Source: a virus
Taxonomy: Duplodnaviria; Caudoviricetes
Length of the DNA: 64,000 bases
Direction: 5' to 3' (one strand)
IMG/VR virus record: IMGVR_UViG_3300037297_000386
The notes below the pieces were generated by a model. The model saw only the letters and a program-made list of their open reading frames with translations, was not told the origin of the DNA and made no database searches. This document shows, one piece after another, positions 26,971-50,068 of the stretch. A program made the position numbers and the translations under genes. Numbering within the stretch: the stretch's first letter is position 1; the number at the start of each line of letters is the position of its first letter.

Positions 26971-29900
26971 TTAATATCTAAATCTTATAGTAACCCCATA
27001 AACTCTAATATTATCCATACTTGTTGGATTCACGTAAAAATGTGTAATCCGAACATAATATCTAAAAGCGTTATGGTTAATAACCTCTGTTAAACCGCTA
27101 ATTTCTCCGGCGCCACCCGTTATATGGGCATATCCGAAATAACCACTAACATTCATTTCATTAGAACCAACTGTAGTTCCTATTACTTCGGATTCAAATT
27201 CGGATTCAAGTAATTTTCTCTTTATTATTTCTGCATTAAAATATTCACTGCCAGATTGTGGAGCGTTTCTTCCTTGTACTTGTATTCCAGTCAATGTTGA
27301 GCCATTCGGTATATTAGATATAGGAAAATATAAATATCGTGTATATATGCCAGAATTATCTGATATAGTCCAATAGTCTCTCGTACCATCCATTCTCCAC
27401 TGTGCTTCATATCCATCATATCCTGGGACCGCTGACGAAGCTGGTAAGCCAACAGCATCAGGTAAACCACGGTTTATTCCTATAGTATTATTGTTTGTAT
27501 AAAGTGATAATTGAGAAATGGTTGGCCCAATTTGCAAGCTACTAGCACTATACGTAGACGTATCTGGTAAACTATTTCCAATAAACATACATCCTGATAC
27601 TTCAACATTCGGCATTCTAATTGGGGCACCAGTTAAATTAGTCGTAATTATAGAATTATTTGTGATAGTGACATTTGTTACTTTGTTGGCCGCATATATA
27701 CCATGTGTCCCTTGACCTTCTAAAATATTTCCTGTTATTGTTGTACTGTCCATATTTTGTTCCATATTAATAAACACAGTATCAGCGGTTGCTTTACTAT
27801 CATTCTTTAATCTATTGCCAGAAACAATATGATAATTACCATTCAAATTAATAAGAACTGACATGGTTGTTCCTTCAATAGTATTACCAATTATTTTCAT
27901 TCCTTCGTTAGCCGTGCTTTTATTAGATATACCAACTGAATTCTCATTTACCATATCCATAATAGAATTATTCACAATATCAATGTAACTGGATTCAGCA
28001 TAAATACCATAATTGAAAGAATAATCAGTTGATGGGTCGGGCGTACTAAAATGATTGGTAGAAATTTTACTGCGTTCGCCTTTCCAATAAATTCCATAAT
28101 TTCCTGGGCCAATTAATTTATTGTCTGATATATTTGCCCTATGTGCATTACCATATATATATCTAGCATTAGTATTTCCGATTCTATCTAATGTATTACC
28201 AATGATTGACGCCAATGTAGAAGTATTCTTAACGTAAATACCATAACGAGCCTCACTGTTGATCAACATGTTATTTTCTATGTTAATAGAATCAACACTA
28301 TCGTCTATCCAAACAAGAGCTGTATTGTCATAATTTGAATCATAAACTATCGAGTTCGATATAGTATTACCATGCAACATCGCATGTTCGACATCTTCTA
28401 TGTAAATGCCATATACAAAGCTGTCTCGCAATTTAATGTTATTTATATAATTATTAAATAATGAAAGATATGATATTTTATTACCAGTTGCTGATTCACT
28501 TATAACCCTAATTCCATTAGATATTCGATTTTCTTCCCCACTATCTAGTTCCCCAGTTATAGTATTATTATTAATTCTTAATGTCTCTATACTTTCGCCT
28601 ATATCTACATAAATACCACGAATATCTGTATTATTTACATCAAGTGCCTTGATAGTGTTCCTGGTTATTTGTATATTATTGGATGATCGAACAGATGTTC
28701 CAACTTTTATCCCGTTAGAAACTCCAATTCCAGAAACATTAGTAATATTATTATTATCAATTATCATATTATTACATCCAGTATCACATATTATACCAGA
28801 ATAAATATTATCAATTTTGTTATTAATGATACTTACATTGTCTGATGCGTTTATTGTGATACCTATATCATAACTATTGGTCGATATTGTATCGCCAAAT
28901 CTAAACAGACATCTTTCGATATTAACATTTGAACCATCAATCAATATAAGTGATCCCTGCAAACCAACAGTAGCGCTTAGAATTTCGATATTTTCGAGAT
29001 TATTATTTCCCTCTAGAGTAATAAAATTATCACCATGTTCTAACTCATTTATTATTTGACTTTTCCCGTTTCCACCAAATGGTACATTTCCAATAATAGA
29101 AACACCATTTGGTACGACTAATGGATTTTTAGGATAGACTGGATTTATTATTCGTATTATTAACTTTTCTTTATTTGGATAATGGTTCGCATACAACAAT
29201 GCGCCTTCAAGACTTCTAAAGTTTCCAATTACATTATTTGTTTCATCAACTATGATATCTATTTTATCATCTAGATTGTTGGTAAATTTTCTAATATCTA
29301 CCACATTTTCAATATTACCATTATTTACGGTTATTTGATACAATGGCAATATTTTACCAAATGTTGCATCGGCATTATATCCATCAGTCAGTATTTCACC
29401 AAGTTCATCACTTAATACTTGTATAGATCCAAAATCATTTATTCCAACTATTCGTATAGAATTGTTTAATATTATTCCTTCTGAATCTTGCACATTTACT
29501 ATAACTTTTTGAGTCTCTATTGCTAAACGAACCCCATTGACATAGGCAATTCCACCACGCAACGGTAAAGCTGCCATATCAGTAACAGAATCATAATATG
29601 GAATATCAAGAAGATCGAAACCACGTACAATACCATTAGAGCGCAACTCAGATGTTGGCCTTTGACTGAATATCTCGATAAAGTCATCTCTTATTTCATT
29701 CGAACTAATATTACCAAATAAACGATTATCTATTATATTTGTAATCGAATGGGTACCATCAAAATGTACAGTAGCTAATAAAAAGGCCTCATCTGGTGGA
29801 ATAGACTCACTTATAGTTGCAATTTCTAATCCCCCTGGTATATTTCCTGGAATGATTTTAAAAAGCATATAATCTAGACCGTTTGGATGATATAATTTAA

Positions 29901-32040
29901 AACTACCTATAAAATTTTCATGTATCCTTACAGTTTCTCCAGAGACAGTATCATCTACAATATTAAAATCTACAAAATCACCGTCCAGGGTTACTAATAT
30001 CATTACATCGCCAATTGGAAATGAATCAGATATATTTATAATCTGAACGCCCGAGCCAAGTGTAGTTCCGTAGATTAATTTTTGATGAACAAATGTCTCC
30101 CCACCAGCACTAATAAGAACTTGTACTAGCCCCATATCAGTTTCTGTACTTTCTAGTATATCTAATGGAATATTAGAAGATGATACTCTAACATTAAAAG
30201 TTGTAGGATTATTAGGAGAATCAATTTTTTCTTTACTAAATAATGACACACTTGTTGAATTAGATGAAAGAACGACATAACTACCATTAGTATCTAATGT
30301 TGGGTGCCCAGTAATATGTAAAATCGACCCGGGCCCAATACCATATCTGATTGGATTCACAAGTAATCCATTTTTCCATAACATAAATGTACTTGATTCG
30401 CTAGTTATACTAGCGTATCCATCGAAGGTGTCAGATAATCCGGTCAGAGAAACGCCATTAATTGAATATTTGGTATTATTATTTCCATAAATCTTCTGAT
30501 CGACGATATTAGCACCATAGGCATCAAATCCTAATGGATAATTACCAGTATAACCATCAACTATTTCAAGTGTGTAATCTGGACCAATCCAATTGTGTGC
30601 AATAGCTAACTCATTTCCTATCCTAAATGCTGTAATTGGAAAATGGTACCCTAAATCAGGGTCACTCACATAGGCATTAATTCTTTCTGCTACAGAGCTA
30701 GAATCCACTGGATCTGCTTGACCAGTCCCCAATCGTTCTTGATGTAACCCAGGAATTATTATTTCTCTATAAAGAGAATTACCCATACCCACTTTAATAG
30801 CAATTTCATATCCATCGGAATTCAAAATAGATCCATTAAATCCTATACTCGTAGCTCTGGCAGAGCAAGGATTCATAATAGAAATCGTATCTACAATATT
30901 TTCATTACCAATTGAAGTACAAGCTAATGGGGCATATTCGCTAGAAATTGCTGATGGTTTGTATATGTTTACAACAACATTATCTCCATAGGATCTACTT
31001 TCAGAAAAAATGTGAAACACAAGTAATTCATCATTATCTAATTGTGGTAAATTACCAAGTGTTTTAGAACTGGTTAATGGGCCAATAGCACTAATTTGAT
31101 ATGTTCCACTATCAATTATACCACTTTGTTGGACAATTTCCAAAATATCGCCAGCTTCTACCCCTAAAGTAGCAAACGATGTTATATTAGGGATCTTAAT
31201 AACACTAGTCCCTTCAGTATAAGAGGCCCCAGATATAGTGTCAACCAAGCGACGATTAGAATTATAATAATTGCCAGAATTAATTTCTTTTAAAATTCCA
31301 TTCGAATGAAATTCGTCAATATGAGCAACACCAAGAGCCCCAGCACTTGCATCCATACTGTCTAATGCTTCTTGCACATTTATTGATGTTCTGTCTATGC
31401 TAACAAAATCGGTTGTATCAATGCCAATTTCAGATGCAATATGTTTAAATTGAGACGGTATGTTGCTATTAATATGCGGTACTATAGTATCGTTGCCAGA
31501 GATAATAATACCGGATAATTCGTTTATAGCATCTCCTATAGTAGTAGCTTCAAGTCCAGCAACGCCAATACTACTACCAACGTTTATTTTTATATTATAC
31601 CCATCATGATAATAGCCGCGCCCCAATGTGTGAATATTTAACATAGATGTTGAGCTAGACAAACCGGAAGATATGCCATTGAGATCAGTACGCATAGAAT
31701 CGACAAGATTTTTTAAATATGTCGTTCCATAATCTAATGCTAATTTTGATTCTTGTATACCAGCGGTTGCACCGATGTGTTTATTTAAAACAGGTAATGT
31801 TAGTAGTCCAATATTTTCAAGAGATGACGGTTTTATTCGCCCATTGGGATCTATTGATACATTAACTCTATCCACAAAAGATGAACGATTGCCTTGTGGA
31901 TTTAATCCGACCGTTTTTTGAATAATAAAAATCGCATCTCGCAGAGAATTAATAACATCGCCACTAATTTCACTGACATTTTGGTTAATGCGCGGTATTT
32001 CTAGATCACTATCTAATTCTAATGGATACGAAGTGCTCAT
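26971..32040 (-). CDS. Tail fibre/tailspike with C-terminal parallel beta-helix (1689 aa)
   Basis: N-terminal YP..LDSD.EIPR...INSLRDAI..I...G.NPQG anchor domain shared with the next gene. The C-terminal third is rich in I..N.I beta-helix repeats. Confidence 0.75.
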   Translation of the reverse strand: MSTSYPLELDSDLEIPRINQNVSEISGDVINSLRDAIFIIQKTVGLNPQGNRSSFVDRVNVSIDPNGRIKPSSLENIGLLTLPVLNKHIGATAGIQESKLALDYGTTYLKNLVDSMRTDLNGISSGLSSSTSMLNIHTLGRGYYHDGYNIKINVGSSIGVAGLEATTIGDAINELSGIIISGNDTIVPHINSNIPSQFKHIASEIGIDTTDFVSIDRTSINVQEALDSMDASAGALGVAHIDEFHSNGILKEINSGNYYNSNRRLVDTISGASYTEGTSVIKIPNITSFATLGVEAGDILEIVQQSGIIDSGTYQISAIGPLTSSKTLGNLPQLDNDELLVFHIFSESRSYGDNVVVNIYKPSAISSEYAPLACTSIGNENIVDTISIMNPCSARATSIGFNGSILNSDGYEIAIKVGMGNSLYREIIIPGLHQERLGTGQADPVDSSSVAERINAYVSDPDLGYHFPITAFRIGNELAIAHNWIGPDYTLEIVDGYTGNYPLGFDAYGANIVDQKIYGNNNTKYSINGVSLTGLSDTFDGYASITSESSTFMLWKNGLLVNPIRYGIGPGSILHITGHPTLDTNGSYVVLSSNSTSVSLFSKEKIDSPNNPTTFNVRVSSSNIPLDILESTETDMGLVQVLISAGGETFVHQKLIYGTTLGSGVQIINISDSFPIGDVMILVTLDGDFVDFNIVDDTVSGETVRIHENFIGSFKLYHPNGLDYMLFKIIPGNIPGGLEIATISESIPPDEAFLLATVHFDGTHSITNIIDNRLFGNISSNEIRDDFIEIFSQRPTSELRSNGIVRGFDLLDIPYYDSVTDMAALPLRGGIAYVNGVRLAIETQKVIVNVQDSEGIILNNSIRIVGINDFGSIQVLSDELGEILTDGYNADATFGKILPLYQITVNNGNIENVVDIRKFTNNLDDKIDIIVDETNNVIGNFRSLEGALLYANHYPNKEKLIIRIINPVYPKNPLVVPNGVSIIGNVPFGGNGKSQIINELEHGDNFITLEGNNNLENIEILSATVGLQGSLILIDGSNVNIERCLFRFGDTISTNSYDIGITINASDNVSIINNKIDNIYSGIICDTGCNNMIIDNNNITNVSGIGVSNGIKVGTSVRSSNNIQITRNTIKALDVNNTDIRGIYVDIGESIETLRINNNTITGELDSGEENRISNGIRVISESATGNKISYLSLFNNYINNIKLRDSFVYGIYIEDVEHAMLHGNTISNSIVYDSNYDNTALVWIDDSVDSINIENNMLINSEARYGIYVKNTSTLASIIGNTLDRIGNTNARYIYGNAHRANISDNKLIGPGNYGIYWKGERSKISTNHFSTPDPSTDYSFNYGIYAESSYIDIVNNSIMDMVNENSVGISNKSTANEGMKIIGNTIEGTTMSVLINLNGNYHIVSGNRLKNDSKATADTVFINMEQNMDSTTITGNILEGQGTHGIYAANKVTNVTITNNSIITTNLTGAPIRMPNVEVSGCMFIGNSLPDTSTYSASSLQIGPTISQLSLYTNNNTIGINRGLPDAVGLPASSAVPGYDGYEAQWRMDGTRDYWTISDNSGIYTRYLYFPISNIPNGSTLTGIQVQGRNAPQSGSEYFNAEIIKRKLLESEFESEVIGTTVGSNEMNVSGYFGYAHITGGAGEISGLTEVINHNAFRYYVRITHFYVNPTSMDNIRVYGVTIRFRY

Positions 32041-32085
32041 CTGGCTGCCTCATTAATTTTTTCTAAAAATCCAAATTTCATTGTA

Positions 32086-35000
32086 CTAAAATATTTCTCC
32101 CACAGTTGCTGCTATCGAAGTTGAATCTCCGTCTATTTCATTAATTGCTCCTGCTATACTATAACTTGAGGTTACTATTCTTACATTGTCGAATCTTATT
32201 GTTGGTTCCGGATCAGATCCTGGTCCACCATCAACATAATTAGAGTTAACTATCCTAACACGCGGAACTACATCGAACATAATATTTTCTGGGAGCCCAA
32301 GCTCAGATACTGGAATAGATACAACATATCGTTCTGTTTGAGATTTGGATGGAAGAACTCCAGTATAAATAGTCTTGACCGTAGCATACGCTTCTGAAAC
32401 AGTCAAATTTTCCATTCCTCTTTCAGTTGCTATCCCAACGTCGATATACACAGTGTCGCTGACACCAAATGGACCATTGATACCAGTCTTGATTCCTGTA
32501 TAAATTAATTCAATAAATACATTTAAATGGGTCAGACCAATGGCCCTAAAAATTGTAGTTTGCATGGTATCTGGATCACTAAATTCAAACCTTCTAGTAG
32601 TAATTATGGCACTACCGGCCCCAAACCCTCTAGCTGATAATGGTGTCTCATATTGACCTGGTATATAAGAAAATCCATTGTTAGATCCCATCTCAATACT
32701 AGCTAAATAACCATCAATACCACCAGATGCTTCAGTTACGGTAAATCCCCATGAACTGCCTTGCACTGTATTACGAATCTGTGTTACTTTTTGTTCTAAA
32801 TTAGCTTTCAAATCTACAATCTTTTTGTCCAACTTGTTAATCATTAAACGACGGTCTATAAAATATCCATCTATTGATGACCCATTTGCTTCGAATTGTC
32901 CTATTATAGCGACACCCCTATCGTCACCATACCCATCTCCGGATGTAAGTTCTTCAAATGTAAATCCAGAATCATACTCAGTCTTTATTATATAATTACC
33001 GTGATGGTCAAGTAGCAACAATTTTTGTGATGCACTAAGATCGTCTACTTCTACATCCTTCGTACTAACCTCTACAATTCTACCGTCTACTAAAGCCCGG
33101 CCGCCACGAATTTTAAGATAATTATCACCATGCGAAATATACTCAAATCCACGTATAATACCATTATTTCTTAATTCTTTCGTAATGTCTTCTATTGGAA
33201 CTGGATTAAGAGTATCTTCTGATATGTTATTAATACTAGTTCCAAGAGGACGATGATCTATAGCATATTTTAAGGTTTCAATGCTCCAATTCCCAGAATA
33301 ATGAACCGATGCTATATGTAATTTATCATCGGTACCCCCAAAAGCAAACACACTCATTGTCTCACGTGAGCTAGATGGAATACCAGTAACTTCAAATAAG
33401 GCACTATTAATATTATCTGGTGCATATGCTTTAAGTTCGCCTAGAAAACCAGATGGTATATTGGACGCAGTTCCACGATCGCCATTCTCATACAAATAAA
33501 TTTTAGTGGCATCACTTATCTGCCATTCCACTTCCGATGTCGGGAAATCTTTACTGATAACCTTAATGTCTACTCCAGATATTGGATGGTATTGTACTCT
33601 AAGAGACTTAGTAATTATGCCATATCCGTCGCCATCTGGTTCTATAAAAATATCAAAAATTTCACCATTAGCGCTATTTTCGAAATTAACAGCATCTGCC
33701 GGTATTTCAATATCAAATTCTCCCAAAGCAATGTCCGAACTTAGTACAATCGATTCATCGTTTGGAAATCCAAGAATGTAATGCGTACCATTATAATCTG
33801 AACTCGTACTGTGATTTGTAATATTGCATAAAAGGCGGCCCTCATTTCCTATAATAATTCCTAATTCGGATAAATCACCTAATCCAAGAGATAAAGTATT
33901 TAATGGTTTAGTGTTATGTACATAATGACGTTTTACAAGCGACTTTATATCAAATATTTTTTGCCCACCTATATAGGCTCCATTAACATCTTTAGTCCAT
34001 TCAAATACGGTACCAGTAACAGATCCAAACCCAAGAGCTGTCGCTGCAGAAAATTGCACAGAATCTAATACCTGGATCGTAAACTCCTTTCCTGGCATAG
34101 TATGTGCAATAGTAAGATGTCCACCAGTATTATAGGCCGAAATCGGATAATGCTCTTCGCACCCCTGCGCTTTTGTATTAATTGCATTAACGACTTCATT
34201 TAAATCATCAGTCGGTATAATAGCTTGTAGATTGACATCCAAATAAGATCTACCAATTCCGCCAGCCTGAATCCTTAAGTATTGAGCAGACCCAATGCTT
34301 AGCGCATGTAAATCTAAATTCTTACTGGTTACTCTGGCAACATTTGGCCGCATTACCTGAAAAATATTAGTTGCTTTACTTGTTTCAGTTTGAAATATAG
34401 TGCCAGCTAAAGTGGTTTCTTTTAAATTTCCTTGATCACCTTGCTCTCCTCTGTCATTTAATATAACACCCGTAGTATGTCCCTTATCTTGATGGTCTTC
34501 GGTAACAGTGGATCCCAAATTATCTAATTCTATCAGAGCGCTTTGTACATCATTAGCAGAAAAATTTATAAATTCATTATTAGTAGAGATACCATAAGCT
34601 TTATGAGCGCCAATAGAAGATTGTTCATGTGATGTAAATGCGTTATTCAATACATTTATAATTGTTTCAACATCTTCACTACTTCTTATTGGCTGTGTTA
34701 AGTCTATATGATAACCGTCGTGTTTATATCCAGTTCCGCCGAAATGTTTAGTGAATTGATTAATCAATATATTAAAAGTCGTTCTTAATGTGTTTATATC
34801 AACAATATTAGAAGAAATTTTCCCATTCAAAGTTGCAGTCGGATAATCTAAATCCAATTTTACTTCCTCAATGGCCGCACCTGCTGATATATGAGCGTTT
34901 GTTATTGGAAGAGTTACCAATCCACGTTCTTGTAAAGCAGATAATTTAATACGACCATTCGCATCAATAGACTCATTAATTCTAGTTACTAAATCTTCCA

Positions 35001-35157
35001 TATTACCTTGCGGATTTACACCTATCGTATCCTCTATTGAAAATATAGCGTCACGCAAAGAATTAATTGATTCGGCACCTATTTCGGTAATATTGTTTTC
35101 TACTCTTGGGATTTCAACATCCGAGTCAATTGTACCAGGATAACTGCTTCTACCCAT
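32086..35157 (-). CDS. Tail fibre/baseplate appendage protein, paralog of 26971-32040 (1023 aa)
   Basis: Shares the N-terminal ~110 aa, the HDGY motif, the H[FY]PI.A...L.IAH module and ELR.NGI.RGF...RGG.A.V.G with the neighbour. Confidence 0.7.
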   Translation of the reverse strand: MGRSSYPGTIDSDVEIPRVENNITEIGAESINSLRDAIFSIEDTIGVNPQGNMEDLVTRINESIDANGRIKLSALQERGLVTLPITNAHISAGAAIEEVKLDLDYPTATLNGKISSNIVDINTLRTTFNILINQFTKHFGGTGYKHDGYHIDLTQPIRSSEDVETIINVLNNAFTSHEQSSIGAHKAYGISTNNEFINFSANDVQSALIELDNLGSTVTEDHQDKGHTTGVILNDRGEQGDQGNLKETTLAGTIFQTETSKATNIFQVMRPNVARVTSKNLDLHALSIGSAQYLRIQAGGIGRSYLDVNLQAIIPTDDLNEVVNAINTKAQGCEEHYPISAYNTGGHLTIAHTMPGKEFTIQVLDSVQFSAATALGFGSVTGTVFEWTKDVNGAYIGGQKIFDIKSLVKRHYVHNTKPLNTLSLGLGDLSELGIIIGNEGRLLCNITNHSTSSDYNGTHYILGFPNDESIVLSSDIALGEFDIEIPADAVNFENSANGEIFDIFIEPDGDGYGIITKSLRVQYHPISGVDIKVISKDFPTSEVEWQISDATKIYLYENGDRGTASNIPSGFLGELKAYAPDNINSALFEVTGIPSSSRETMSVFAFGGTDDKLHIASVHYSGNWSIETLKYAIDHRPLGTSINNISEDTLNPVPIEDITKELRNNGIIRGFEYISHGDNYLKIRGGRALVDGRIVEVSTKDVEVDDLSASQKLLLLDHHGNYIIKTEYDSGFTFEELTSGDGYGDDRGVAIIGQFEANGSSIDGYFIDRRLMINKLDKKIVDLKANLEQKVTQIRNTVQGSSWGFTVTEASGGIDGYLASIEMGSNNGFSYIPGQYETPLSARGFGAGSAIITTRRFEFSDPDTMQTTIFRAIGLTHLNVFIELIYTGIKTGINGPFGVSDTVYIDVGIATERGMENLTVSEAYATVKTIYTGVLPSKSQTERYVVSIPVSELGLPENIMFDVVPRVRIVNSNYVDGGPGSDPEPTIRFDNVRIVTSSYSIAGAINEIDGDSTSIAATVGEIF

Positions 35158-39300: not shown

Positions 39301-42300
39301 ACAAGCGACATTAGTTAAATCACCTATAATTAGAGCTGCGTATGGTGCGAGATCATACCCATCAGAATCAACCACATTACCTATAATAGATGTATAACTG
39401 GTCGTACTTAGATTAAAAACTCTAGCGTTATTGTTATTTAATGTAGAGTGATTTCCTAAAGTTCCAGATATTATTAGGTCACCACTACAAGAGTTTCCAT
39501 TAATACATGACGAAGATACTGAACCAGATATACTAATTCCCCCGATTCCAGTATTTGTAAAATCACGTAGTATTGTATTATTCGATATACTTGAATTATT
39601 TATTGAACCAGTTATTTGTATAACATGTCCAGTTATAGATGCATTTCCAATTGTATTAGAGTCTATCTTAGTAGAAGTAACAGATCCGGCACCAAATGTG
39701 CCAGCAACCATGAGTCCAGTAATTGTTGACTTTGTTATATCACCCACAGATGTAACATTTCCTCTCACAGTGTTATTTCCAAACACAGAGTTAGACACGG
39801 ACGTTGACACATTCAAATTATTTTCTATTTCATTGTTTGAAAATACAGTATTACTCCACGTTGTTGACGATATACCAGATGATCCTAGGATACTATTGGA
39901 ATCGATTGTACTATTGCTAATTGCCACAATAGTAAGGTCACCTTCTAGGCGATTGTTGCATATTTTTGATTCATCACAAGAATCATGTAATTCGATTTTA
40001 CCAGAAGATGTGTTTTCAGAAATTATAGAGTTATCAATTGTGCCAGCAAAATCAAATCCTGTTGACCCAGCCATATTTGATGTAATACTTGTTTCATCCA
40101 AATCACCATTTAAATCTATCGCTCCTAATACGGCATTATTGGATATCATGGCGTTTGTAATATTACCATTTAATATTAAGTCAGACGAAACATGATTACC
40201 AGATATTTGTATTTTATTTCCAGTAGCAGCAGCAATTGCAACATTTCCACCAGTTACCCAGTTGTTTTTAATAGATAGATCATTAAAATTACTATCTGAA
40301 TCTAAAGTACCGCCTATGTTAATAGATCCAGCAACCAGTTTGTTTCCAGATACAGATAAATCTTCGAATGTATAATCATTAGCATCAGTCGTAGATTCCA
40401 TTACAATGATTGACCCAGTTGTATCAAACACATTATTTTCTATAGTACATCCTTGTAAAGTAAATCCACTACTATTTGCTATCATATCATGTAAGGTAAT
40501 ATTACTACTGCCCATCATTACATTATCTTTTATTACAATTATATCTGAACTGCTACCATCAGCCGAATCTCCTGCATATATATCGTAAAACAAATCGATA
40601 TGATTAACTCTATTATTCGATATAGAAATATTGTGCAATTTGTGAGAATACCAATATATTCCTTTCGATCCGACGAATGTGTTTCCAGTTAATTCAATAC
40701 CTTTAGTGTCCGTATCTAAGTATACACGTTCATTAAAAACCATGTCGCCATGCATTATATTGTTAGAGAAAATGCAAGCACTTAAATAGATACCAACATA
40801 GGCGTCATCCCCAAAATTAATTGAGTCAACTATGGTAGTATCAGCATCACCAATCATATTATTTGTAACTTTTAAGTCAGAATATGTAATATTGCCTCCC
40901 GCAGAATTGGCAGATGTGGCAAAATTAATTGACGAAGTTACAGAGTTATTATCAATGATAAGATTTTTGATATTATGTTGCCCAAATCCATGCAATGATC
41001 CAGATATATCTAAATCGTCATGGAATTTGTTATCAGATATATTAACATTATTAATTTCCCAATCTGATGTTGTATCATCAGCTTTAAAAAGTGCTTTACC
41101 GAAACAAATATTACCAACGAAATTAAAATCACTAACTGAATTATATATACCAAAGGAATTAATAATATTATTGTTGAATTGAGAATCCACAATATACCCA
41201 TCTAGGTGGATATCATTAAACACATTGTCTTTAATTATTGATCCAGATAAACCATTAATATATATATTCCTAAATTCTGAATTATTACAAATACGCACAT
41301 TTTCTAAAATTGTGTCTATATCTAATCCTATATCAGCTGTTAGTGCTATATTATTTTCTGTAATATGGATCTCTCGTATATTTTCTAATATACCTCCATC
41401 TGAAATACCGCTTTCAAAATATATTGCATATCCATCAACAGCCGATTCTGAAATTTTAAAATTGTTAGAAGTTATATTGATATTATCTATAGACACACTT
41501 GGAGTAACTGAAAGCCCGTCGATGATATAATTTCCTATATAAACTGGTCGATCGAATGATGGTGAATCGAAGATATTACTATATATATCGATATTTTTAT
41601 ATGTTGTGTTAATATGCTTGGGAGCAAATCCAATACCATAAGCATCATGTGTGGCCCACAATTCATTGTTTTTAATTTTTATATTCTGAATTGTTTGAGA
41701 GGCAGAAGTTGTTGTTATTTCTATAGCGGCCCGTTTTTCAGTTGATCCATTAGTTTTTATAGTGAGCCCACTAATTGACGCATCGCTTCCTTGCACTGAA
41801 AATGCGGGCAAACTATTCGGACGAGTTATTTCAGCTCGCTTACTTAAACCAATCACTTTGACATTCGAGGGTATATTAACAGTATCAGTATATACATAAT
41901 CTCCCTCTTTAAGATATACTGTCCCTCCATACGGTGATAATGAATCAACCGCCATCTGCATAACGGTACTTGTTTGACCATAATATGTTCCAAAACTATT
42001 AATACCATCACCAACTGTTACTATATTAACATCATCATTATCTATTAAAGTCGGACCTGTATATTGATAAAAAGTTGCGAACATAGTTAAGCGTCCTTCA
42101 TCTTCTGGACGCTCATATCCATCTATATCTCCGTATACTCCGAATGGATTCATTATACTATTAATGCCATTTAGCGGAGCACCAGTAAATCTTATTATAC
42201 CATTAGCATAATCTACAGTCCACCTTGCATTATTACCAATGCCATATTCAGCTGTTGGATCAGCGGTAATCGGAATAGAACCATACCCATCATAGGCATC

Positions 42301-42792
42301 CAAACTAGATCCGGTTGGAGATGACAAATCTGTCACAGAATGGGCTGGAAATAGCGCTAACTCAAAACCACGAAAATTAGGATCGGCATGAGCGGCATTT
42401 GTTTTACCTATTGATAAATCAGGTGGAACTATATGTTTTACACGTACAAATTCTATATCCTCTGGATTATCTGATGCAGGCGTAGAATGGACTGCAACAA
42501 AAGTCTGGATAGATGATAGCCCAGACATGCCAGATGTAGCTAAAGAATGTAAACGAATTTTTTGACGTCTGGATGCTACTGCGCCGTTTGGCCAATCACC
42601 ATATTCCGGAGATGTAAACAAAGTATCGGATGTAGGGGTTTCACTAAATATATCATTCCGTAGAATTATTTCCGAATTACCAAATGGCTCTTCAACATAT
42701 GATTTATCCGACCCTAAAGTATTAGCCTTTCGTTGCTCACACTTATCGGCTCCGGCAATTTTTTCTTGGTCTAAGTTTGTAAAAGTTGCCAT
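36367..42792 (-). CDS. Very long parallel beta-helix tailspike/fibre (2141 aa)
   Basis: Pectate-lyase-like cap (MQMAVDSLSPYGGTVYLKEGDY...VNIPSNVKVIG) followed by ~1800 aa of N/S/I/D-rich beta-helix repeats. Confidence 0.8.
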   Translation of the reverse strand: MATFTNLDQEKIAGADKCEQRKANTLGSDKSYVEEPFGNSEIILRNDIFSETPTSDTLFTSPEYGDWPNGAVASRRQKIRLHSLATSGMSGLSSIQTFVAVHSTPASDNPEDIEFVRVKHIVPPDLSIGKTNAAHADPNFRGFELALFPAHSVTDLSSPTGSSLDAYDGYGSIPITADPTAEYGIGNNARWTVDYANGIIRFTGAPLNGINSIMNPFGVYGDIDGYERPEDEGRLTMFATFYQYTGPTLIDNDDVNIVTVGDGINSFGTYYGQTSTVMQMAVDSLSPYGGTVYLKEGDYVYTDTVNIPSNVKVIGLSKRAEITRPNSLPAFSVQGSDASISGLTIKTNGSTEKRAAIEITTTSASQTIQNIKIKNNELWATHDAYGIGFAPKHINTTYKNIDIYSNIFDSPSFDRPVYIGNYIIDGLSVTPSVSIDNINITSNNFKISESAVDGYAIYFESGISDGGILENIREIHITENNIALTADIGLDIDTILENVRICNNSEFRNIYINGLSGSIIKDNVFNDIHLDGYIVDSQFNNNIINSFGIYNSVSDFNFVGNICFGKALFKADDTTSDWEINNVNISDNKFHDDLDISGSLHGFGQHNIKNLIIDNNSVTSSINFATSANSAGGNITYSDLKVTNNMIGDADTTIVDSINFGDDAYVGIYLSACIFSNNIMHGDMVFNERVYLDTDTKGIELTGNTFVGSKGIYWYSHKLHNISISNNRVNHIDLFYDIYAGDSADGSSSDIIVIKDNVMMGSSNITLHDMIANSSGFTLQGCTIENNVFDTTGSIIVMESTTDANDYTFEDLSVSGNKLVAGSINIGGTLDSDSNFNDLSIKNNWVTGGNVAIAAATGNKIQISGNHVSSDLILNGNITNAMISNNAVLGAIDLNGDLDETSITSNMAGSTGFDFAGTIDNSIISENTSSGKIELHDSCDESKICNNRLEGDLTIVAISNSTIDSNSILGSSGISSTTWSNTVFSNNEIENNLNVSTSVSNSVFGNNTVRGNVTSVGDITKSTITGLMVAGTFGAGSVTSTKIDSNTIGNASITGHVIQITGSINNSSISNNTILRDFTNTGIGGISISGSVSSSCINGNSCSGDLIISGTLGNHSTLNNNNARVFNLSTTSYTSIIGNVVDSDGYDLAPYAALIIGDLTNVACSNNIFRSTSTTADISVGDCSDVTFSGNLLFSEPSQKIVFGAITGTEISDCKFVSSSVEVTSMISSSIDNSVLDAGFTMPSLAGTLLNNSSITNTEIDGAVSFTNSGTNAIFLNSTFGYNTLTNSSSNAFVIQSGDKIFEKSHFDGNTIIGAVTMDVNEDSSGHYLLLDSTFCNNIFASGLGCLGVDSASYSTYVLDSVISNNQFDGYLSIGTDLNTTTSGNLFNNTIFNSNRIGSYFNLGPSGRTIVTYQNSVISDNSFGSDISISGSLAGCSISNNVMKDNVTIGTLSGTVMSSNMIGSDGDGNLTLSGLSQNSTCVSNIVNGTFEIDDSIEDGYVSSSNIINNTINSTFTIDGAITDALIDNNNIVGVSTISGTLSDSSFSSNHSASTVTFSNSLDSCVINNNIVDDSSDLVFSGAVGGTASSGCVISNNRCNNLNMNGDCDYADIISNYVNGTFTLSASAKERLSIVGNKFNIISASAAPLSNSTVGNNIVDSTVGLNSLTNCVLNGNVFSDNVTISGNVSKSIIENNIMSGISGYISITLSGTFTDSVFSDNQLYQTLSFTYSSDNSIVRSTISSNNIYGAIQIADRIYDSLISDNMIYGNGNNTSLEEIYYSVINNNKFEDTVDITGAVYNSNITGNNFSGSTDALDFLSSLVSTTFSSNYVDNIDFTGVLNDCVITDNIFSSVVNFDATSTSLQDCTISCNQFDDTVTIDGDLVRCIVTGNQIASTLSVDDLNVVSVTSNVFNAAFNSSSWTDVSCSGNTFNSTASAGSNTITESSIGNNIFNSTFTSGKWIDVACNGNSFNSSLTVTDTGTDTACITRVAFQGNNCKGLIHFAKTGDGTADNFIHSTFSGNVFQTGLALGSSGVANEHTRIAITGNSGPGYITIYTGPGTEMDSCMIIANSMTGALTLSLSAAGDYDCPALNGTSDPMIALNWFSSYSGINFTNHAIGWGNSSSANTGTTFGSNMTSAAT

Positions 42793-42806
42793 TTAAAATC
42801 TGCTCC

Positions 42807-45512
42807 TTACGGTAATAGTTGTAACATCGTCAAAATTTTCTGTTTAGAAATTTCTCGCTGTGCCAATGTAGACCCAAAATAAGTTACTTTAACGGCAATG
42901 GCATAATTATATGTATTATTAGAATCTTCAAATATAGCATCAGCAGTGTTTCTAGGACCAAACGTAAAAGGTACAGTAAAATCTCCTGAGTTACCGGTAA
43001 CTTCTCCATACAAAGCCCCATATCCGTCACTTTGCCCTGGTCCATAATATTGCCCGGTCTCGAACAAACGACTAATATCTAACCATTCTGTACTATTGGT
43101 CCCAGTTCCTGGAATTTTAACTTCAATTCTTCCGAATCTGTTCTGATTATTATGCTGTATATCCCAGAATGATATAGGTGATTCTCCATTACTAACGACT
43201 CTCAATTTCCCACTATTTATGGGATATCCCAGTGTAAATAATCTTCTATAAGACAAATCCCCTGTTTTGGTTGAATAATCCATGCTTGCTAAATCAACTT
43301 GATATGGACGTATTCGATGTCTGACATTATAATAATCAGTTTGTGGGTAAATTAGTCCTGGTATATTATATTCTGTATCGGTAAATCTACCACCAACTTG
43401 TAGACTATCTATTGGTAATGGTGACTGATAATCAAAAGAAGATAAATCATCATATCCATCTATAATCATAGTTTTTGTAAAACTTACTGAATCGGCCATG
43501 CGTTTAGATTCATCAGTGAAATACTCTGTGGTATTGGTTGATCTGGTAATAGAATGGCTATTTACTAATATACGATGAATAGATTCTGCACCAAATGCTG
43601 TGTATCCGTCTCCTGGCCCAAATGGATCATTCATTGTACCACTTATATAAGTATGAGTACTAAATCGATCTGACGCAGGATAAAGGCGACGACTTTCATT
43701 TGTAGCTGTTCCATTGATTAAAGTAGTATCATCTACTATATAATATGTTTGGTCACCAAAAGATGGAAGATTACTAGATGACCATTTCATATATCCGTCA
43801 TCAAGCAATTCTGTTACAGCAACGTTAGCCCCCCAGTATCCATCACTAATTCCATTCGGAAAATTGAGTACATTGGTTTCAAATGTCAAAATGTCATTAT
43901 ATTTATACGTTTTATTAAAAACATTATTATCACTTCTCAATTCGAATTCAAATAAATCATCTGCACCATTATAGTATTTTATACCTGATCTCATCGTTGT
44001 CCCATCTATTGATGGGGTATCAGACACAGGGCGCAAATTGATTAATTCTATCCCAGGTCTAGTTGGGCTACTATCAACGTATACATTAGAAAATCTTATC
44101 GGAGAATGGCCATCGTGATCATCTATTACCCATGTAGTATCTGTTGAACTATATAGATCAGTAGAAGCTGGATTACCTGTATAACTAGCGGTTGAATTTT
44201 CTTTAAAATGTAATATCCTATAGCTTGATATATTATCATTAGCTTCAACTTCAGTAATATCATTCGGTGATGATAAAGCTCCGCCAACAACATCATCATT
44301 GGAAATTGGTATTAAATATTTAGCAATCTGTAAACGTGTAAAATCATTTTCAAAATTATCATATGGTTGTTCTCCATCAGAATTTTCGTTTACTGATGAA
44401 TAATCTTTTTTTACTGGATATCTATCATATAATGTTATCGTATCAAAATTTTCTAACGTAGGGGTATAAACTTTTTGTCCTGTTGTACGAGTTGTGTTAT
44501 CAAATGCAGTACCCAAATCCAATACAGCAACTGGGAAAAAGTCGGACACTCCACGCAGTTTTCGTTGTAGTACTAGAGTTCCACGATCTGCCGGAAATAC
44601 CATTCCACCTATCATAGATTGTAATCGGCTGTTGCCAGATATATTGGTTGCCGTTCTTGTAATATATCGCGTAAACTTGAATCCCTCCGATGGAAGAGAA
44701 TAGTATCCATGTACAGATTCAAGGCCATAAATTTCGAAATGTTCTATCAATTCAACACCTTCACCTGGATTTACCAAAGATGTATTATTTCTGGTAACCC
44801 TTATTCTTTTATTCGTATCACTAGAGGTTAAGATCAAAACCTCACCCTGTCCGAGTTCCCATGTAGCATTTCTGACTACAACAGAATTTCCAAATGTAGA
44901 GTCGCCAGGGGCCATCCAGGATAAAGTACTAATACTGGAAGCATGTGCCATCTTTAAATAACCATCGCCATCCGGTGTATTTATACTAACTTCAAAAACA
45001 TGAATACCGCGAATACCAGGATCAACAGAAGACGGTTGAGTTCGTTTTTGAATGGTATCACTAGAAGAAATGTTAAATATAAATTTTGTTCCATATCCAT
45101 CGTAACTTGTTGGAATTCCATCATTGGGAACTTTACTATTATCTTCTCCAATATTGTCTGGTTGTGGCGGTAATAAAGATGACAATTCTTCTAGAGCTTC
45201 CTCTACATCATCGCCAAAGTAATGATCTTCTTCATCTAAGATAGAAATAGCACTTGCATCATGAGCATCTTCGGTGTCAGCAAGATGTGCTAATATAAGA
45301 GCTTTAGCATCTCCAATATTATCAAGCCGCGAAGCGACTGTTGCAAAAGTTCCACTGGGTTGCACTCCTAATTCATATTCGATTTTAATTATCGCATCGC
45401 GCAATCTATTTACATCTGCTGCAACTATTTCATGCACACCATCACGACGCAAAGGCATAGTACCATAGCTGTCTAAATGCTCAGGATATACCGAATATGA
45501 TTCGTTTGCCAT
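42807..45512 (-). CDS. Virion appendage/collar protein (901 aa)
   Basis: N-terminus YP..LD...VNRLRDAI.KIE.ELG.QP.G is related to the anchor domain of the two fibre genes. HLADTEDAHDASAIS is a fibre-type His motif. Confidence 0.65.
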   Translation of the reverse strand: MANESYSVYPEHLDSYGTMPLRRDGVHEIVAADVNRLRDAIIKIEYELGVQPSGTFATVASRLDNIGDAKALILAHLADTEDAHDASAISILDEEDHYFGDDVEEALEELSSLLPPQPDNIGEDNSKVPNDGIPTSYDGYGTKFIFNISSSDTIQKRTQPSSVDPGIRGIHVFEVSINTPDGDGYLKMAHASSISTLSWMAPGDSTFGNSVVVRNATWELGQGEVLILTSSDTNKRIRVTRNNTSLVNPGEGVELIEHFEIYGLESVHGYYSLPSEGFKFTRYITRTATNISGNSRLQSMIGGMVFPADRGTLVLQRKLRGVSDFFPVAVLDLGTAFDNTTRTTGQKVYTPTLENFDTITLYDRYPVKKDYSSVNENSDGEQPYDNFENDFTRLQIAKYLIPISNDDVVGGALSSPNDITEVEANDNISSYRILHFKENSTASYTGNPASTDLYSSTDTTWVIDDHDGHSPIRFSNVYVDSSPTRPGIELINLRPVSDTPSIDGTTMRSGIKYYNGADDLFEFELRSDNNVFNKTYKYNDILTFETNVLNFPNGISDGYWGANVAVTELLDDGYMKWSSSNLPSFGDQTYYIVDDTTLINGTATNESRRLYPASDRFSTHTYISGTMNDPFGPGDGYTAFGAESIHRILVNSHSITRSTNTTEYFTDESKRMADSVSFTKTMIIDGYDDLSSFDYQSPLPIDSLQVGGRFTDTEYNIPGLIYPQTDYYNVRHRIRPYQVDLASMDYSTKTGDLSYRRLFTLGYPINSGKLRVVSNGESPISFWDIQHNNQNRFGRIEVKIPGTGTNSTEWLDISRLFETGQYYGPGQSDGYGALYGEVTGNSGDFTVPFTFGPRNTADAIFEDSNNTYNYAIAVKVTYFGSTLAQREISKQKILTMLQLLP

Positions 45513-45541
45513 TTATTATCTCCAGATAAACATATTTACCG

Positions 45542-46921
45542 TTATATTAACGTTTCTATTGGAAATTGGTAGACTACGTCCGTTTTGTCAAGTCTTTTAA
45601 TTCTAAATGATTGTTTTCCAGTTTTTCCAAAAAATAATTTATTTCTGACTACATCTAAACATTCATAACGAAACTCTTCCGTACCATCTTCATTAAACCT
45701 AATTATAATAGATCTATCTTTAATTGTAGGTACATTAATGGTCCAACAATTTGGAATTTCTACTGATTGCCTGGCTCCTTGAGCAGCCATTAATTCCAAA
45801 TCATCTGTATAAGGAGGTATTCTAGCTAAAATAAAACCTTGCGTATTTTGGCTGTATTCTGAGATTGGTCTCGGATTAACATATCTATCATAACCACCAT
45901 CAAACCCAACATTAAAACAGTATGGGCATCTTGTGCGAGGATGTTCTCTTCTCAATCCTTGACATCTACAGCGCTTTCCAGTCCATTTTCGTTTTAATAA
46001 AATTACTGTTTCACCAGTAACCTGTAACATAGCATCCAATCTTGCTAGATTACGATCTTGAAAAAACAGACCTCTTCCGTTATCAAACTCTCCACCTACA
46101 TAGCTTTTAACACATTCTCCACTAAAAGTAGCTTGTAAACTTGGTCTATGATAACTATTATAATCATAACTTGGGAAATCTAATGTATTTTGATCAGATA
46201 CGGATAAGTCTGTTGTCAACAAATCCTGTGATTTTGATCTATATCCATCTTCATCTACATTATATTCACCAATAGCCTCTGTATTACGGGGTGTTCCGTA
46301 TGATTGGTGCCAGGCAGCAGTTTCTTGAAAAATTACAGTATTTTGCTCTTCAACGCCATGCCATAATTTTACTTCGGTTCCTGCAAGATGTGTATCTATA
46401 TATGTAATATAAGCACCCCGTTGTATGTCTTCAACTATAAATGCCGTATCTGTTTTTGTGCTATATTGTAAAATTTCAGTATCAATTAATAGGAACCCTT
46501 TGTTTGGATAACCTTGTGTACTACCAACTTCTACTGTTGCTCCGTATGCATCAATATCTTCCTGTAATATGACAGTATTAGGATATTGATATACATTATT
46601 ACTAATTTGATCTAGATCTTCTATGTCGAACTCTTCTATATCAAACTCAGTCGCTCTAACGGCAAAATAGTATAAATTGCCTGGGTCAACGTTGATCACC
46701 GCCTGTTTATCTCTCGTTATAGCCTGAGGCCAATTATCAAAAACTCCAAAACGAGTGTCAGAATAATATATATTATAATGTATTATGTTGGAAACGTTAT
46801 TTGGAGTTGCTTGGCCCCATGTGAGCTTTAGACCCATCCCGTTGCCAACATCCTCTACAACTCTAAGGCCAACATAAAAATCCCATGTAGGTTTTGGTCT
46901 GCATCCAACCGAACTTGTCAC
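45542..46921 (-). CDS. Head-closure/neck protein with N-terminal FN3-like domain and CxC...CxxC motif
   Basis: LTWGQATP...HYNIYY...YYFAVRA (FN3-like). C-terminal GETVILLKRKWTGKRCRC...CPYCF..GF.GGY and P.IKDR..II...EFRY fit head-closure proteins. Confidence 0.6.
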   Translation of the reverse strand: MTSSVGCRPKPTWDFYVGLRVVEDVGNGMGLKLTWGQATPNNVSNIIHYNIYYSDTRFGVFDNWPQAITRDKQAVINVDPGNLYYFAVRATEFDIEEFDIEDLDQISNNVYQYPNTVILQEDIDAYGATVEVGSTQGYPNKGFLLIDTEILQYSTKTDTAFIVEDIQRGAYITYIDTHLAGTEVKLWHGVEEQNTVIFQETAAWHQSYGTPRNTEAIGEYNVDEDGYRSKSQDLLTTDLSVSDQNTLDFPSYDYNSYHRPSLQATFSGECVKSYVGGEFDNGRGLFFQDRNLARLDAMLQVTGETVILLKRKWTGKRCRCQGLRREHPRTRCPYCFNVGFDGGYDRYVNPRPISEYSQNTQGFILARIPPYTDDLELMAAQGARQSVEIPNCWTINVPTIKDRSIIIRFNEDGTEEFRYECLDVVRNKLFFGKTGKQSFRIKRLDKTDVVYQFPIETLI

Positions 46922-46933
46922 AATAGGTCCTCG

Positions 46934-47455
46934 TTACTCTTCCATCAGCTCTTTTTTCTTCTTATCACGTTCCGTACCCACCAAATCATGATGGTCCAAC
47001 AGTTTTTCTACATAATCATCTGCTTCCTTTTCAGATTCTTCCCTCTTTTTAAAATTTATTTGAGTTTTAAATGCTTCTTCTTCTGTATCTAGGTCTAAAT
47101 AATCCTTATTTTTATTGTGTTTGCAATTTTGTCCAGTTGATTGTTGTAAATAGTGAACCAACTCATGAATTAAATAATGTGTAGGATCTTTAACATCGCT
47201 ATCATCATCTAACATTTTTTCATTTAAAAATATTTCTCTATTTTTTGTTTTAGCTGATACATCTAAATCGCAGAATTGTACAGAAACATCATCTATGTCA
47301 TCTATTGGGACATCATATTCTTTAAATTTTTTTATAATAGCAGGGTCTTGTTTGGCTTGTTCTTTCATTTCAATTATAAGTTTTTCAATATCTGGGTCCG
47401 ACCTGCTACTTATCTTTTTCAGTGTCAGATGCCTCATAGACAGCTTTTTCATCAT
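46934..47455 (-). CDS. Small zincin-type metallopeptidase (HExxH)
   Basis: THYLIHELVHYLQ plus downstream TEEEAF as a candidate third zinc ligand. Confidence 0.65.
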   Translation of the reverse strand: MMKKLSMRHLTLKKISSRSDPDIEKLIIEMKEQAKQDPAIIKKFKEYDVPIDDIDDVSVQFCDLDVSAKTKNREIFLNEKMLDDDSDVKDPTHYLIHELVHYLQQSTGQNCKHNKNKDYLDLDTEEEAFKTQINFKKREESEKEADDYVEKLLDHHDLVGTERDKKKKELMEE

Positions 47456-47642: not shown

Positions 47643-47654
47643 TTACTTTCTCCT

Positions 47655-48570: not shown

Positions 48571-48810
48571 TCAGTCTGGTGTCCAGGTTCCTGCAAAACT
48601 AAAGGTCGCTGTTATCGCTGTTGTTGTCTCACCCATTACTAAGCTAACAACAGTCCCAACTTCAACTTCTCCCGAGCCAGGAGTTAATCCTAACTCATCT
48701 TCCGCAGCTGACATAAGAAAGCTCTTTACTTTGTCCCAAAAATCTTCGACATTTGGATTTGTATTGTTAACTTCTGTTGATACTGTTACTGATACAACTT
48801 GTGTTGACAT
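48571..48810 (-). CDS. Small acidic, Thr/Val-rich probable virion protein
   Basis: AAGGAG SD. Composition typical of structural proteins. Confidence 0.6.
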   Translation of the reverse strand: MSTQVVSVTVSTEVNNTNPNVEDFWDKVKSFLMSAAEDELGLTPGSGEVEVGTVVSLVMGETTTAITATFSFAGTWTPD

Positions 48811-48835
48811 TTGTTTCTCCCTTCCCCTTTTTTAT

Positions 48836-50068
48836 TTAAGGACTCCAGTACAAAATACCAATCGTACATTCGCCTGCAGAAACCGAAGTCCAGTCATTAT
48901 CAACTGTTATGGTGACAGTTACTGTTTTAGCTGCATCGTGCCATTTCGTTCCGCTAGGGTCACCCATATCTACGCCCGAAGCATTAGAAGTATATACATC
49001 TGGTGTGCCTGTATTGTATCTATCTACAACTGTACCATCACCTACTTGTATCGTTGCTGTAGAGTTAACTCCACCAGTAAAGCCAGTAAGTGTATGAAGA
49101 ATACACGCAACGACCACTGCGCCATCAGGTATTTGTTCATCTAAGTCTAATGTTCCTACAACTCCTCCACCGTCTGTAAAATCATCGTAGGCTATTGTTT
49201 GATTCACACAGCCAAGACCTGCGCCGTTGCCACCTAAAGCGAGGCGGTTCCAGGTCCACCGCGAATCTTGAGTGCTATCTGTTGCTGGATTTTCGCTTGA
49301 CTTCAATATAATCGTAGGGTCATCTGGTACAGAATAACCATAATTATATTCGTAATACGTCTGACTTCCGACAAGTAAGTGATTCGAACTAGGATGTAGG
49401 AAGAATCCGCCTGGATATGGTGAATATTCTGTAGAAAGGACAAGCCACATTCCCTCAGGACCAACGTATAGTAACTTATTTCTGGTCATGGTTAAATGAT
49501 TATAGAAACCTGTAGCGCTATAGAAAAGGGCATAATCATCAAAACTTGCAACCCCATCAACTTCTAACTTTCCGCCAATAAGTACATCTTCAGTAGTAAG
49601 TGAACGACTTGTAACCGCAGATTTTCCAAGGTTTAATGGTCCTGCGCCGTCAAAAATACGTCCATCTATTCTTAGATTTAATGCACCAGCACTTTCATCA
49701 GTAAGAGTTAACTGACCATCAGTAGTAGTATCAAAGATTACTCCTTGGTCGCCAGCGCTGTTGGATATTATTAGTTTACCTTCGGAATCGGATGTAAGCC
49801 ATGTATCATGTAATTTAACACCAGTCCCGCCAATCTCTAATCTGTTTGTTTCACGGTTCCACTTTAGGTCATTGTCACCAGCTATAGTGGGAGTGCCTGT
49901 GAAGAAAGCAACGTAACCATCGGCACCATAACCAGATATATTGCCATAACCATCTAAACCTTTTAATATATCCTGTATTGCCTCAGAATGTTGACTGTAA
50001 TGTTCAGACACTGTTGTATCTAAAACATTACTAGAAGATCCTGTAACAATTTTAATAAATCCAGACAT
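48836..50068 (-). CDS. Probable virion decoration/fibre protein (410 aa)
   Basis: GGAG SD, Gly/Thr-rich. C-terminal IPDGAVVV...TGF.G...ATIQVGD domain resembles decoration-type beta-sandwiches. Confidence 0.6.
   Translation of the reverse strand: MSGFIKIVTGSSSNVLDTTVSEHYSQHSEAIQDILKGLDGYGNISGYGADGYVAFFTGTPTIAGDNDLKWNRETNRLEIGGTGVKLHDTWLTSDSEGKLIISNSAGDQGVIFDTTTDGQLTLTDESAGALNLRIDGRIFDGAGPLNLGKSAVTSRSLTTEDVLIGGKLEVDGVASFDDYALFYSATGFYNHLTMTRNKLLYVGPEGMWLVLSTEYSPYPGGFFLHPSSNHLLVGSQTYYEYNYGYSVPDDPTIILKSSENPATDSTQDSRWTWNRLALGGNGAGLGCVNQTIAYDDFTDGGGVVGTLDLDEQIPDGAVVVACILHTLTGFTGGVNSTATIQVGDGTVVDRYNTGTPDVYTSNASGVDMGDPSGTKWHDAAKTVTVTITVDNDWTSVSAGECTIGILYWSP

Follow-up and report, generated by a model that had tools for sequence, protein, structure and literature searches.

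Known bacterial glycosylation sequons include D/E-X-N-X-S/T, used by PglB of Campylobacter, and D-(S/T)-(A/I/L/V/M/T), the general O-glycosylation motif of Bacteroidota. Transferases of the Maf family glycosylate flagellin, a secreted filament protein, with pseudaminic or legionaminic acid in the cytoplasm, on Ser/Thr and with no sequon. Here, we examine a candidate motif of this kind in the tail proteins of an uncultured huge phage, the tripeptide Asp-Gly-Tyr (DGY), which a sequence-only reading had singled out in a 64,000-nucleotide (nt) stretch of the virus record IMGVR_UViG_3300037297_000386 (Duplodnaviria; Caudoviricetes), hereafter the window. DGY, with DAY as a weaker variant (D-[G>A]-Y), appears to be a short linear tag that selection maintains, across a large clade of uncultured huge phages, on their outer tail proteins.

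Like the bacterial sequons, which are three to five residues long and require an Asp one or two positions ahead of the acceptor, DGY is scattered over many unrelated surface proteins, lies in exposed loops and is gained and lost in evolution. It is over-represented on its targets, and its sites fall in coil or insertions with turnover, as expected of a sequon. Unlike them, its putative acceptor is Tyr rather than Asn or Ser/Thr, and because phage tails assemble in the cytoplasm, the enzyme would be a soluble glycosyltransferase (GT) and not a periplasmic oligosaccharyltransferase. A possible parallel with Maf systems is seen in one relative, G006, which has family matches to a nonulosonate pathway and a Maf-like (PF01973) gene beside its tail module; Maf enzymes differ in acting on Ser/Thr without a sequon, and the Maf-like gene is rare here.

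Two further systems bear on this comparison. Mycobacteriophage virions are glycosylated by phage-encoded GTs, according to Freeman et al. 2023 as cited in PMC12619734, where the glycans are placed at the C-termini of capsid and tail-tube subunits. There as here, GT genes adjoin the structural genes or lie among them. The mycobacteriophage enzymes act in the cytoplasm on the phage's own structural proteins, which sets a precedent for tailed phages coated with glycans; in the present clade, such GT action is proposed. Unlike those glycans, DGY is internal and Tyr-based and sits on fibres and outer baseplate, with none in the sheath or in the open reading frames (ORFs) labelled tube or capsid by the sequence-only reading. 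In Paenibacillus alvei and Thermoanaerobacter, S-layer surface proteins carry glycans O-linked to Tyr (PMC2943079), showing that a Tyr O-linkage is feasible in bacteria, although transfer is thought to occur there during secretion, via an O-oligosaccharyltransferase acting on a lipid-linked glycan, and no consensus motif is stated (PMC2943079), which differs from the cytoplasmic route proposed here. Our literature search found no publication describing a DGY motif, and no DGY or Asp-Gly-Tyr phage paper was among those listed.

DGY is concentrated in outer tail proteins

Five fibre-type ORFs of the window, all of whose ORFs lie on the minus strand, hold 27 DGY (6, 5, 7, 7 and 2) in 6,164 amino acids (aa), where composition predicts 1.62 (Poisson p 9e-24). 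This recount agrees exactly with the sequence-only reading, including its estimate of fewer than two expected. DGY is the sole Bonferroni survivor among 8,000 tripeptides, the runner-up being IVD (p 2e-5). Residue shuffling, which the reading had set as a test that could overturn it, gives a mean of 1.63 and a maximum of 9 DGY, and first-order Markov simulations that preserve dipeptides give a mean of 4.45 and a maximum of 13; the observed 27 was reached in 0 of 20,000 shuffles and 0 of 5,000 simulations. Tyr follows the DG dipeptide in 27 of 59 cases and Asp precedes GY in 27 of 40, with NGY and DGF both absent from these five ORFs.

Codons at DGY sites follow genome usage (GAT 82% vs 83%, TAT 88% vs 86%), and the signal therefore sits in the protein; at the DNA level, GAYGGNTAY is found 34 times on the coding strand against 3 on the opposite strand. 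All 27 sites have distinct flanks, which bears out the earlier description of varied codons and unrelated surroundings.

The other 36 window ORFs together contain 6 DGY against 2.1 expected. None occurs in the sheath, in the 840-aa, 1591-aa, 661-aa and 655-aa tail proteins or in the head-region ORFs; the earlier report of DGY-free inner proteins thus stands as a count, while of the inner-protein identities that it assigned, homology confirms only the sheath and the J-like wedge. In the genome record as a whole, which spans 162 kb and in which the window occupies bases 87692-151691, DGY is found 60 times against 8.8 expected. Three more DGY-bearing tail proteins reach beyond the window, namely a 1273-aa fibre (16 DGY), a 2186-aa wedge-like protein (3) and the 941-aa last tail protein (3). 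Taken together, nine outer tail proteins carry 51 DGY against 3.0 expected (17x) in 40 independent flank contexts, and the remaining ~40,000 aa of the genome carry 9 against ~5.8. DGY is confined to outer tail proteins, that is fibres, tailspike and outer baseplate. The virion-wide recognition tag of the sequence-only reading accordingly narrows to these parts of the particle, and as a tag it survived every refutation that the reading named and that was run.

Biased composition, repeats or a DNA-level motif might seem to produce such an excess artificially, and recently duplicated repeats do hold 12 of the 16 DGY in the 1273-aa fibre, outside the window. This explanation is refuted, its probability being practically nil, by the shuffles and simulations, the independent flanks, the genome-like codon choice and the same excess in 71 diverged homologues of the 901-aa protein. 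Codon usage rules out a DNA-level motif, and the independence of the flanks rules out hitch-hiking on repeats.

Those 12 sites in the 1273-aa fibre close a ~30-residue helical repeat, '...AIQxILKxL-DGY', which is common to this protein and the 410-aa small fibre, as is the motif 'DGY-[LV]AFFTG'. The L-DGY-ended repeats of the 1273-aa fibre form two clusters.

Definition of the motif

Variants of the motif were compared in four sets: the phage's own proteins, the 71 homologues, related loci and control loci. In the first three, DGY is enriched 14-19x and DAY 3-4x, and DSY, NGY, EGY, DGF, DGW and DGH stand at or below expectation. These counts define the motif as D-[G>A]-Y, in which the Asp carboxylate and the phenolic hydroxyl of Tyr are both required: NGY, EGY, DGF and DGW stay at or below 1x. 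The recurrence of a related D[AS]YG that had been noted earlier holds in part: DAY is mildly enriched and DSY is not (0.3-0.6x).

A calcium-binding DxDGY turn had been expected to explain only some sites, and it covers 4 of the 27 fibre sites (Asp at -2). The Asp residues at -2 and -4 that mark an EF-hand-like or DxDxDG calcium loop are not the pattern seen, and a calcium loop is ruled out as a general explanation.

Conservation and turnover among relatives

In 71 full-length homologues of the 901-aa protein (40-64% identity), there are 314 DGY against 22 expected, spread over 46-48 alignment positions. A few of these positions are conserved (61/71, 56/71 and 36/71 sequences), with DAY or DSY as the usual alternatives there; the 901-aa protein itself reads DSY at residue 14 where 61 of the 71 homologues have DGY. 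Some 30 others are occupied only sporadically, and a number of these fall in insertions that a single sequence has. Across the alignment, it appears that the number of DGY is conserved rather than their positions. Furthermore, many relatives carry tandem (DGYx)3-7 tracts of variable copy number, such as DGYDGYDGY and DGYVDGYADGYVDGYDGYSDGY, all in one loop of the wedge-like protein (homologues of the 2186-aa protein).

Scanning viral contigs with the 901-aa family yielded 67 loci, in the majority of which the similarity is limited to the N-terminal fibre anchor. DGY ratios among these loci fall into two modes, with six loci at 14-26x, a few at 4-10x and high-GC (guanine-cytosine) loci at 0-3x, and pooled control fibre loci contain 60 DGY against 34 expected in 161,000 aa (1.8x). 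The shared anchor peptide itself reads 'IDGY..LP' in DGY-rich phages and 'ID[NTSG][ST]' in the others. The bimodal split and the 1.8x of the control loci, against 17-19x here and in relatives, therefore indicate that the enrichment is not general to phage fibres, which removes a second objection that the sequence-only reading had raised against itself; by these comparisons the enrichment is clade-specific. Homologues of the 1023-aa fibre-type protein were likewise found in DGY-rich loci (L015, L002, L003 and L005).

Structural context of the sites

The AlphaFold2 (AF2) model of the 901-aa protein (predicted local distance difference test, pLDDT, 86; predicted template modelling score, pTM, 0.76) has a disordered N-terminal anchor followed by beta-sandwich domains, for which Foldseek returned only generic Ig-like or beta-sandwich matches. 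At most DGY sites of this model, Asp and Gly lie in coil, with Tyr at the start of a strand or just ahead of one; two sites are in loops modelled with low confidence. In the 901-aa family, 43 of 48 DGY positions are in coil or insertions, compared with 62% of other Tyr. Where homologues lack DGY, the Tyr column holds mostly T, D, A or S and is hydrophobic in 18% of cases, whereas other Tyr columns are hydrophobic in 35%, with F the commonest substitute. With the sites mostly in loops and lineage-specific insertions, buried turns, which would have spoken against a tag, seem unlikely.

DGY could nevertheless act within the protein itself, as an Asx or type I' turn with a strand-initiating Tyr or as a helix C-cap, with nothing reading it and the clade merely using it heavily in beta-rich fibres. 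The placement of Asp, Gly and Tyr in the model suits such a turn, as do the closure of each helical repeat of the 1273-aa fibre by DGY, the origin of many sites from pre-existing DG-x turns (DGD or DGN in homologues) and the conservation of three sites in more than half of the 901-aa homologues. A turn does not explain why clades with the same motifs in their fibres differ 10-fold, why NGY, DGF and DGW are absent, why Tyr alternates with T, S, A and D or why sporadic sites occur in unique insertions, and the back-to-back DGYDGYDGY tracts leave no room for flanking strands. Location in coil and insertions, polar substitutes and tandem tracts argue against a purely structural turn, which we regard as rather unlikely, and favor a motif selected for itself and for its number; a tag read in trans fits better.

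Recurrent micro-motifs offer a related comparison, among them the sialidase Asp-box (SxDxGxTW), the tyrosine corner and the His-boxes of T-even tail fibres. DGY resembles these in being short, in recurring in beta-rich proteins and in combining an Asp-Gly turn with an aromatic residue or metal ligand. Micro-motifs hold fixed structural positions and are not restricted to one clade, unlike DGY, which changes position, turns up in insertions and in tandem, and is missing from the homologous fibres of other phages (the loci at 1.8x); it does not behave as a fixed micro-motif.

Alternatively, each DGY could be a tiny ligand site, its Asp carboxylate and Tyr ring binding a host polysaccharide or a metal ion, with many copies giving multivalent, low-affinity adhesion. 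Restriction to host-facing proteins, location in loops, tandem tracts and the strict need for Asp and Tyr are all compatible with this. The calcium context DxDGY at only 4 of 27 sites speaks against it, nothing in the data points to a ligand, and the DGY of the N-terminal anchor (61/71 homologues) probably faces the baseplate and not the host, making adhesion an improbable role.

A glycosyltransferase cluster behind the tail module

We consider it likely that something reads the DGY tag in trans, and the genes that follow the tail module suggest a candidate. A 399-aa GT4-like gene at genome 159423-160622 starts 79 nt past the last tail gene, and a GT2 gene (E 1e-23) at genome 160607-161365 overlaps its end. 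The AF2 model of the GT4-like protein shows a GT-B fold (pLDDT 89) with Foldseek probability 1.0 to PglA, GlgM, BshA and GtfA, and its EX7E motif (E274, E282) is invariant in 12 orthologues; its Pfam scores fall under the curated cut-off. With this predicted fold and the EX7E motif, the protein would belong to the retaining GTs of family GT4.

Orthologues of the GT4-like gene are present in 14 of 18 contigs of the DGY clade (our own included), the four without it being 10-17% fragments, and in none of 18 other contigs, five of which are at least 90% complete. In every case, a DGY cluster lies directly upstream. No cultured phage of the INPHARED collection has an orthologue. In a sample anchored on the GT gene (80 loci, 30-67% identity, GC content 24-57%), the 10 kb upstream contain 854 DGY against 54 expected (15.8x), with a ratio of at least 5x in every one of the 71 loci whose upstream sequence is long enough; in the 10 kb downstream, there are 18 against 33.7 expected. 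The 941-aa tail protein is encoded upstream in 76 of the 80 loci, and a GT2 gene comes next in 50 of 77. Sampling by the 941-aa protein instead, the GT4-like gene follows downstream in 68 of 68 informative loci.

A scarcity of the motif marks the GT-cluster ORFs of the 10 kb downstream (L082-L161), with DGY at 0.57x and DAY at 0.55x (p about 0.008, uncorrected). DGF, DGT, NGY and SGY are near 1x in the same ORFs, and other xGx tripeptides are more depleted. The scarcity may reflect avoidance of the tag in cytoplasmic enzymes, a weak signal on which we do not rely.

A wider cluster can be seen in relative G006, where family matches beside the GT pair include NeuB, a PseB-like dehydratase, two cytidylyltransferase-family proteins, a GNAT protein and an aminotransferase. 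Additionally, the same region encodes WbuX with HisH/HisF-like proteins, two BFO_1060-like transferases and the Maf-like protein, which matches PF01973 at the Pfam cut-off. The segment G006:48000-67500 (L070), which adjoins the tail module, holds what looks like a complete nonulosonic-acid pathway, with genes for acetamidino and methyl tailoring, as well as a thymidine kinase and a 705-aa ORF that resembles two fused GDP-mannose dehydratases. Its PseB-like dehydratase bears an N-terminal MerR-type helix-turn-helix domain.

Proposed mechanism and candidate readers

The best single mechanism that we can offer, and a tentative one at somewhat less than an even chance, is O-glycosylation of the DGY Tyr by the phage's own transferases. 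DGY would then serve as acceptor for a protein O-glycosylation system that the phage encodes and that works in the cytoplasm, attaching a sugar to the Tyr hydroxyl. The core of the system would be the conserved GT4-like/GT2 pair directly after the last tail gene, supplied by a variable set of sugar-nucleotide genes, and the product would be glycan-coated fibres. Both the identity of the reader as a glycosyltransferase and that of Tyr as the modified residue are what we infer from this arrangement. On this reading, D-[G/A]-Y could be the first Tyr-directed glycosylation sequon, and in hundreds of huge phages soluble GTs acting in the cytoplasm would coat tail fibres and outer baseplate with glycans of the phage's own making, in some lineages nonulosonic acids.

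Several points weigh against a glycosyltransferase as the reader. The GT link joins a clade to its genes and does not join independent events; no clade member without the GT4-like gene exists among the 68 informative loci, so nature provides no experiment on the link, and our own genome record ends 3 kb into the GT cluster. GT2 counts alone separate the DGY-rich from the other groups imperfectly, and the Maf-like gene, found in only 2 of 36 contigs, cannot be a clade-wide reader. No GT4 or GT2 enzyme is known to glycosylate Tyr, and the known bacterial sequons target Asn or Ser/Thr. Exposure of the sites was judged from secondary structure and substitution patterns. Moreover, two DGY fall in the Peptidase_S74 domain of the 1273-aa fibre (the other two S74 domains found in the clade have 0 and 0), and because S74 is cleaved off in characterised homologues, a mark meant for the mature virion is not expected there. 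Finally, the fibre cluster also encodes a 173-aa zincin-like protein, which we find in 17 of the 18 contigs of the DGY clade and in 0 of 18 others; as it tracks the clade as well as the GT does, the GT association is clade-level and not unique. Of the co-occurring modifying enzymes that the sequence-only reading had proposed to look for, a GT4-like/GT2 pair does adjoin the tail module, but the link consists of synteny and co-occurrence within one clade, a pattern that the zincin-like gene shares.

The zincin-like protein serves as a control on the GT association and as a second candidate reader. Its HExxH motif is invariant (alignment A3), its structural neighbours in the Atlas are metallopeptidases, and in the ESM Atlas it falls in phage-only families. 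DGY might be a docking or recognition motif for a partner other than a GT, whether a chaperone of fibre assembly, a decoration or other accessory protein, or the zincin-like protein. The clade limits, turnover, loop location and tandem tracts fit docking equally well, the zincin-like protein follows the clade with its HExxH intact, and DGY in the S74 chaperone domain suits a role before maturation. Against this reading, cleavage at DGY would cut the fibres every 30-300 residues, which is unlikely for structural proteins, and the 332-aa protein encoded between the fibre genes is limited to closer relatives. On balance, docking seems unlikely, though we give it some weight.

A different modification of the Tyr, such as sulfation, phosphorylation, nucleotidylation or oxidative cross-linking by a host or phage enzyme, would fit the strict need for Tyr over Phe, which points to chemistry at the hydroxyl; Tyr-directed enzymes, moreover, typically favour an acidic residue on the upstream side. 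We covered two enzyme families in five large clade genomes: the sulfotransferase (PF13469) was not found, and protein-kinase-like matches are sporadic (2/5). Such a modification is quite improbable in our view.

Should DGY be a modification site, it would constitute a new sequon with a Tyr acceptor, and a large, widespread clade of uncultured huge phages would chemically decorate its host-recognition machinery. Consequences would follow for host range, for resistance to proteases and defence systems and for the expression of such fibres in structural or applied work. As a sequon, DGY would represent a new protein-modification code and a way to shield the host-recognition apparatus or make it sticky. 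Whatever its function, DGY can serve to recognise outer tail proteins in huge-phage genomes that lack annotation and as a marker of the clade, and it makes the purpose of huge-phage glycosyltransferase clusters directly testable.

Features of the tail module

The DGY-bearing proteins and their neighbours are collected in Table 1.

Table 1. Tail-module features of the window and DGY-bearing tail proteins encoded elsewhere in the genome record (nt positions refer to the window unless stated otherwise)
Feature	Position	Strand	Matches and layout	DGY	DGY sites (nt)
2186-aa wedge-like protein, N-terminal 609 codons	1..1827	-		3, outside window
1076-aa baseplate wedge (J-like)	1829..5059	-	PHROG baseplate wedge E 2e-29	2	3407-3415, 3113-3121
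Homing-endonuclease-like gene	21149-21973	-
Sheath	21990-24557	-		0
Homing-endonuclease-like gene	24573-25496	-
ORF	25562-26338	-		1
1689-aa tailspike-like protein	26971..32040	-	C-terminal right-handed beta-helix; Pfam Beta_helix E 8e-13; PHROG tail spike	6	31597-31605, 30808-30816, 30550-30558, 30415-30423, 29377-29385, 27409-27417
1023-aa fibre-type protein	32086..35157	-	N-terminus homologous to that of 1689-aa protein	5	34711-34719, 33622-33630, 32929-32937, 32863-32871, 32707-32715
332-aa protein between fibre genes	35235..36233	-	N-terminal membrane anchor, coiled coil, beta-rich C-terminus	0
2141-aa fibre-type protein	36367..42792	-	No family match (Pfam, PHROG)	7	42283-42291, 42115-42123, 41428-41436, 41194-41202, 39355-39363, 38680-38688, 38293-38301
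901-aa protein	42807..45512	-	N-terminal fibre-anchor peptide, then beta-sandwich domain chain	7	45093-45101, 44958-44966, 43836-43844, 43791-43799, 43602-43610, 43452-43460, 43020-43028
Anchor peptide of 901-aa protein	45350-45512	-	N-terminus; L001-L067 around position 10001
459-aa baseplate-wedge-like protein	45542..46921	-		1	46241-46249
173-aa zincin-like protein, HExxH	46934..47455	-	Weak Pfam matches Peptidase_M91, eCIS_core
410-aa small fibre	48836..50068	-		2	49946-49954, 49913-49921
Homing-endonuclease-like gene	50679-51530	-
ORF	51541-52425	-		1
ORF	55211-55579	-		1
Homing-endonuclease-like gene	59827-60777	-
1273-aa fibre	Genome 1845-5666 (L069:1845-5666), outside window		DUF2793 and C-terminal Peptidase_S74 chaperone domain	16
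941-aa last tail protein	Genome 156519-159344 (L068:6720-9545)			3

Some of these proteins have features of their own. The anchor peptide at the N-terminus of the 901-aa protein, 'YPxxID..LP....NRLRDAIxAIExELGxxPSGxYxTVxxRL', recurs in more than 50 viral contigs that differ widely in GC content, in fibre genes that are unrelated apart from it. In the 941-aa protein, a dockerin/EF-hand-like 'DVNGDGxIDxxD' pair (residues 609-683) is nearly invariant in homologues and directly precedes one DGY. The DGY of the S74 domain in the 1273-aa fibre sit in loops that are shorter in homologues. The 332-aa protein, kept only in closer relatives, has a spanin-like layout, yet its C-terminus is large and beta-rich. 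Scattered between the structural genes of tail and head are the four homing-endonuclease-like genes, of LAGLIDADG, HNH and endonuclease VII types.

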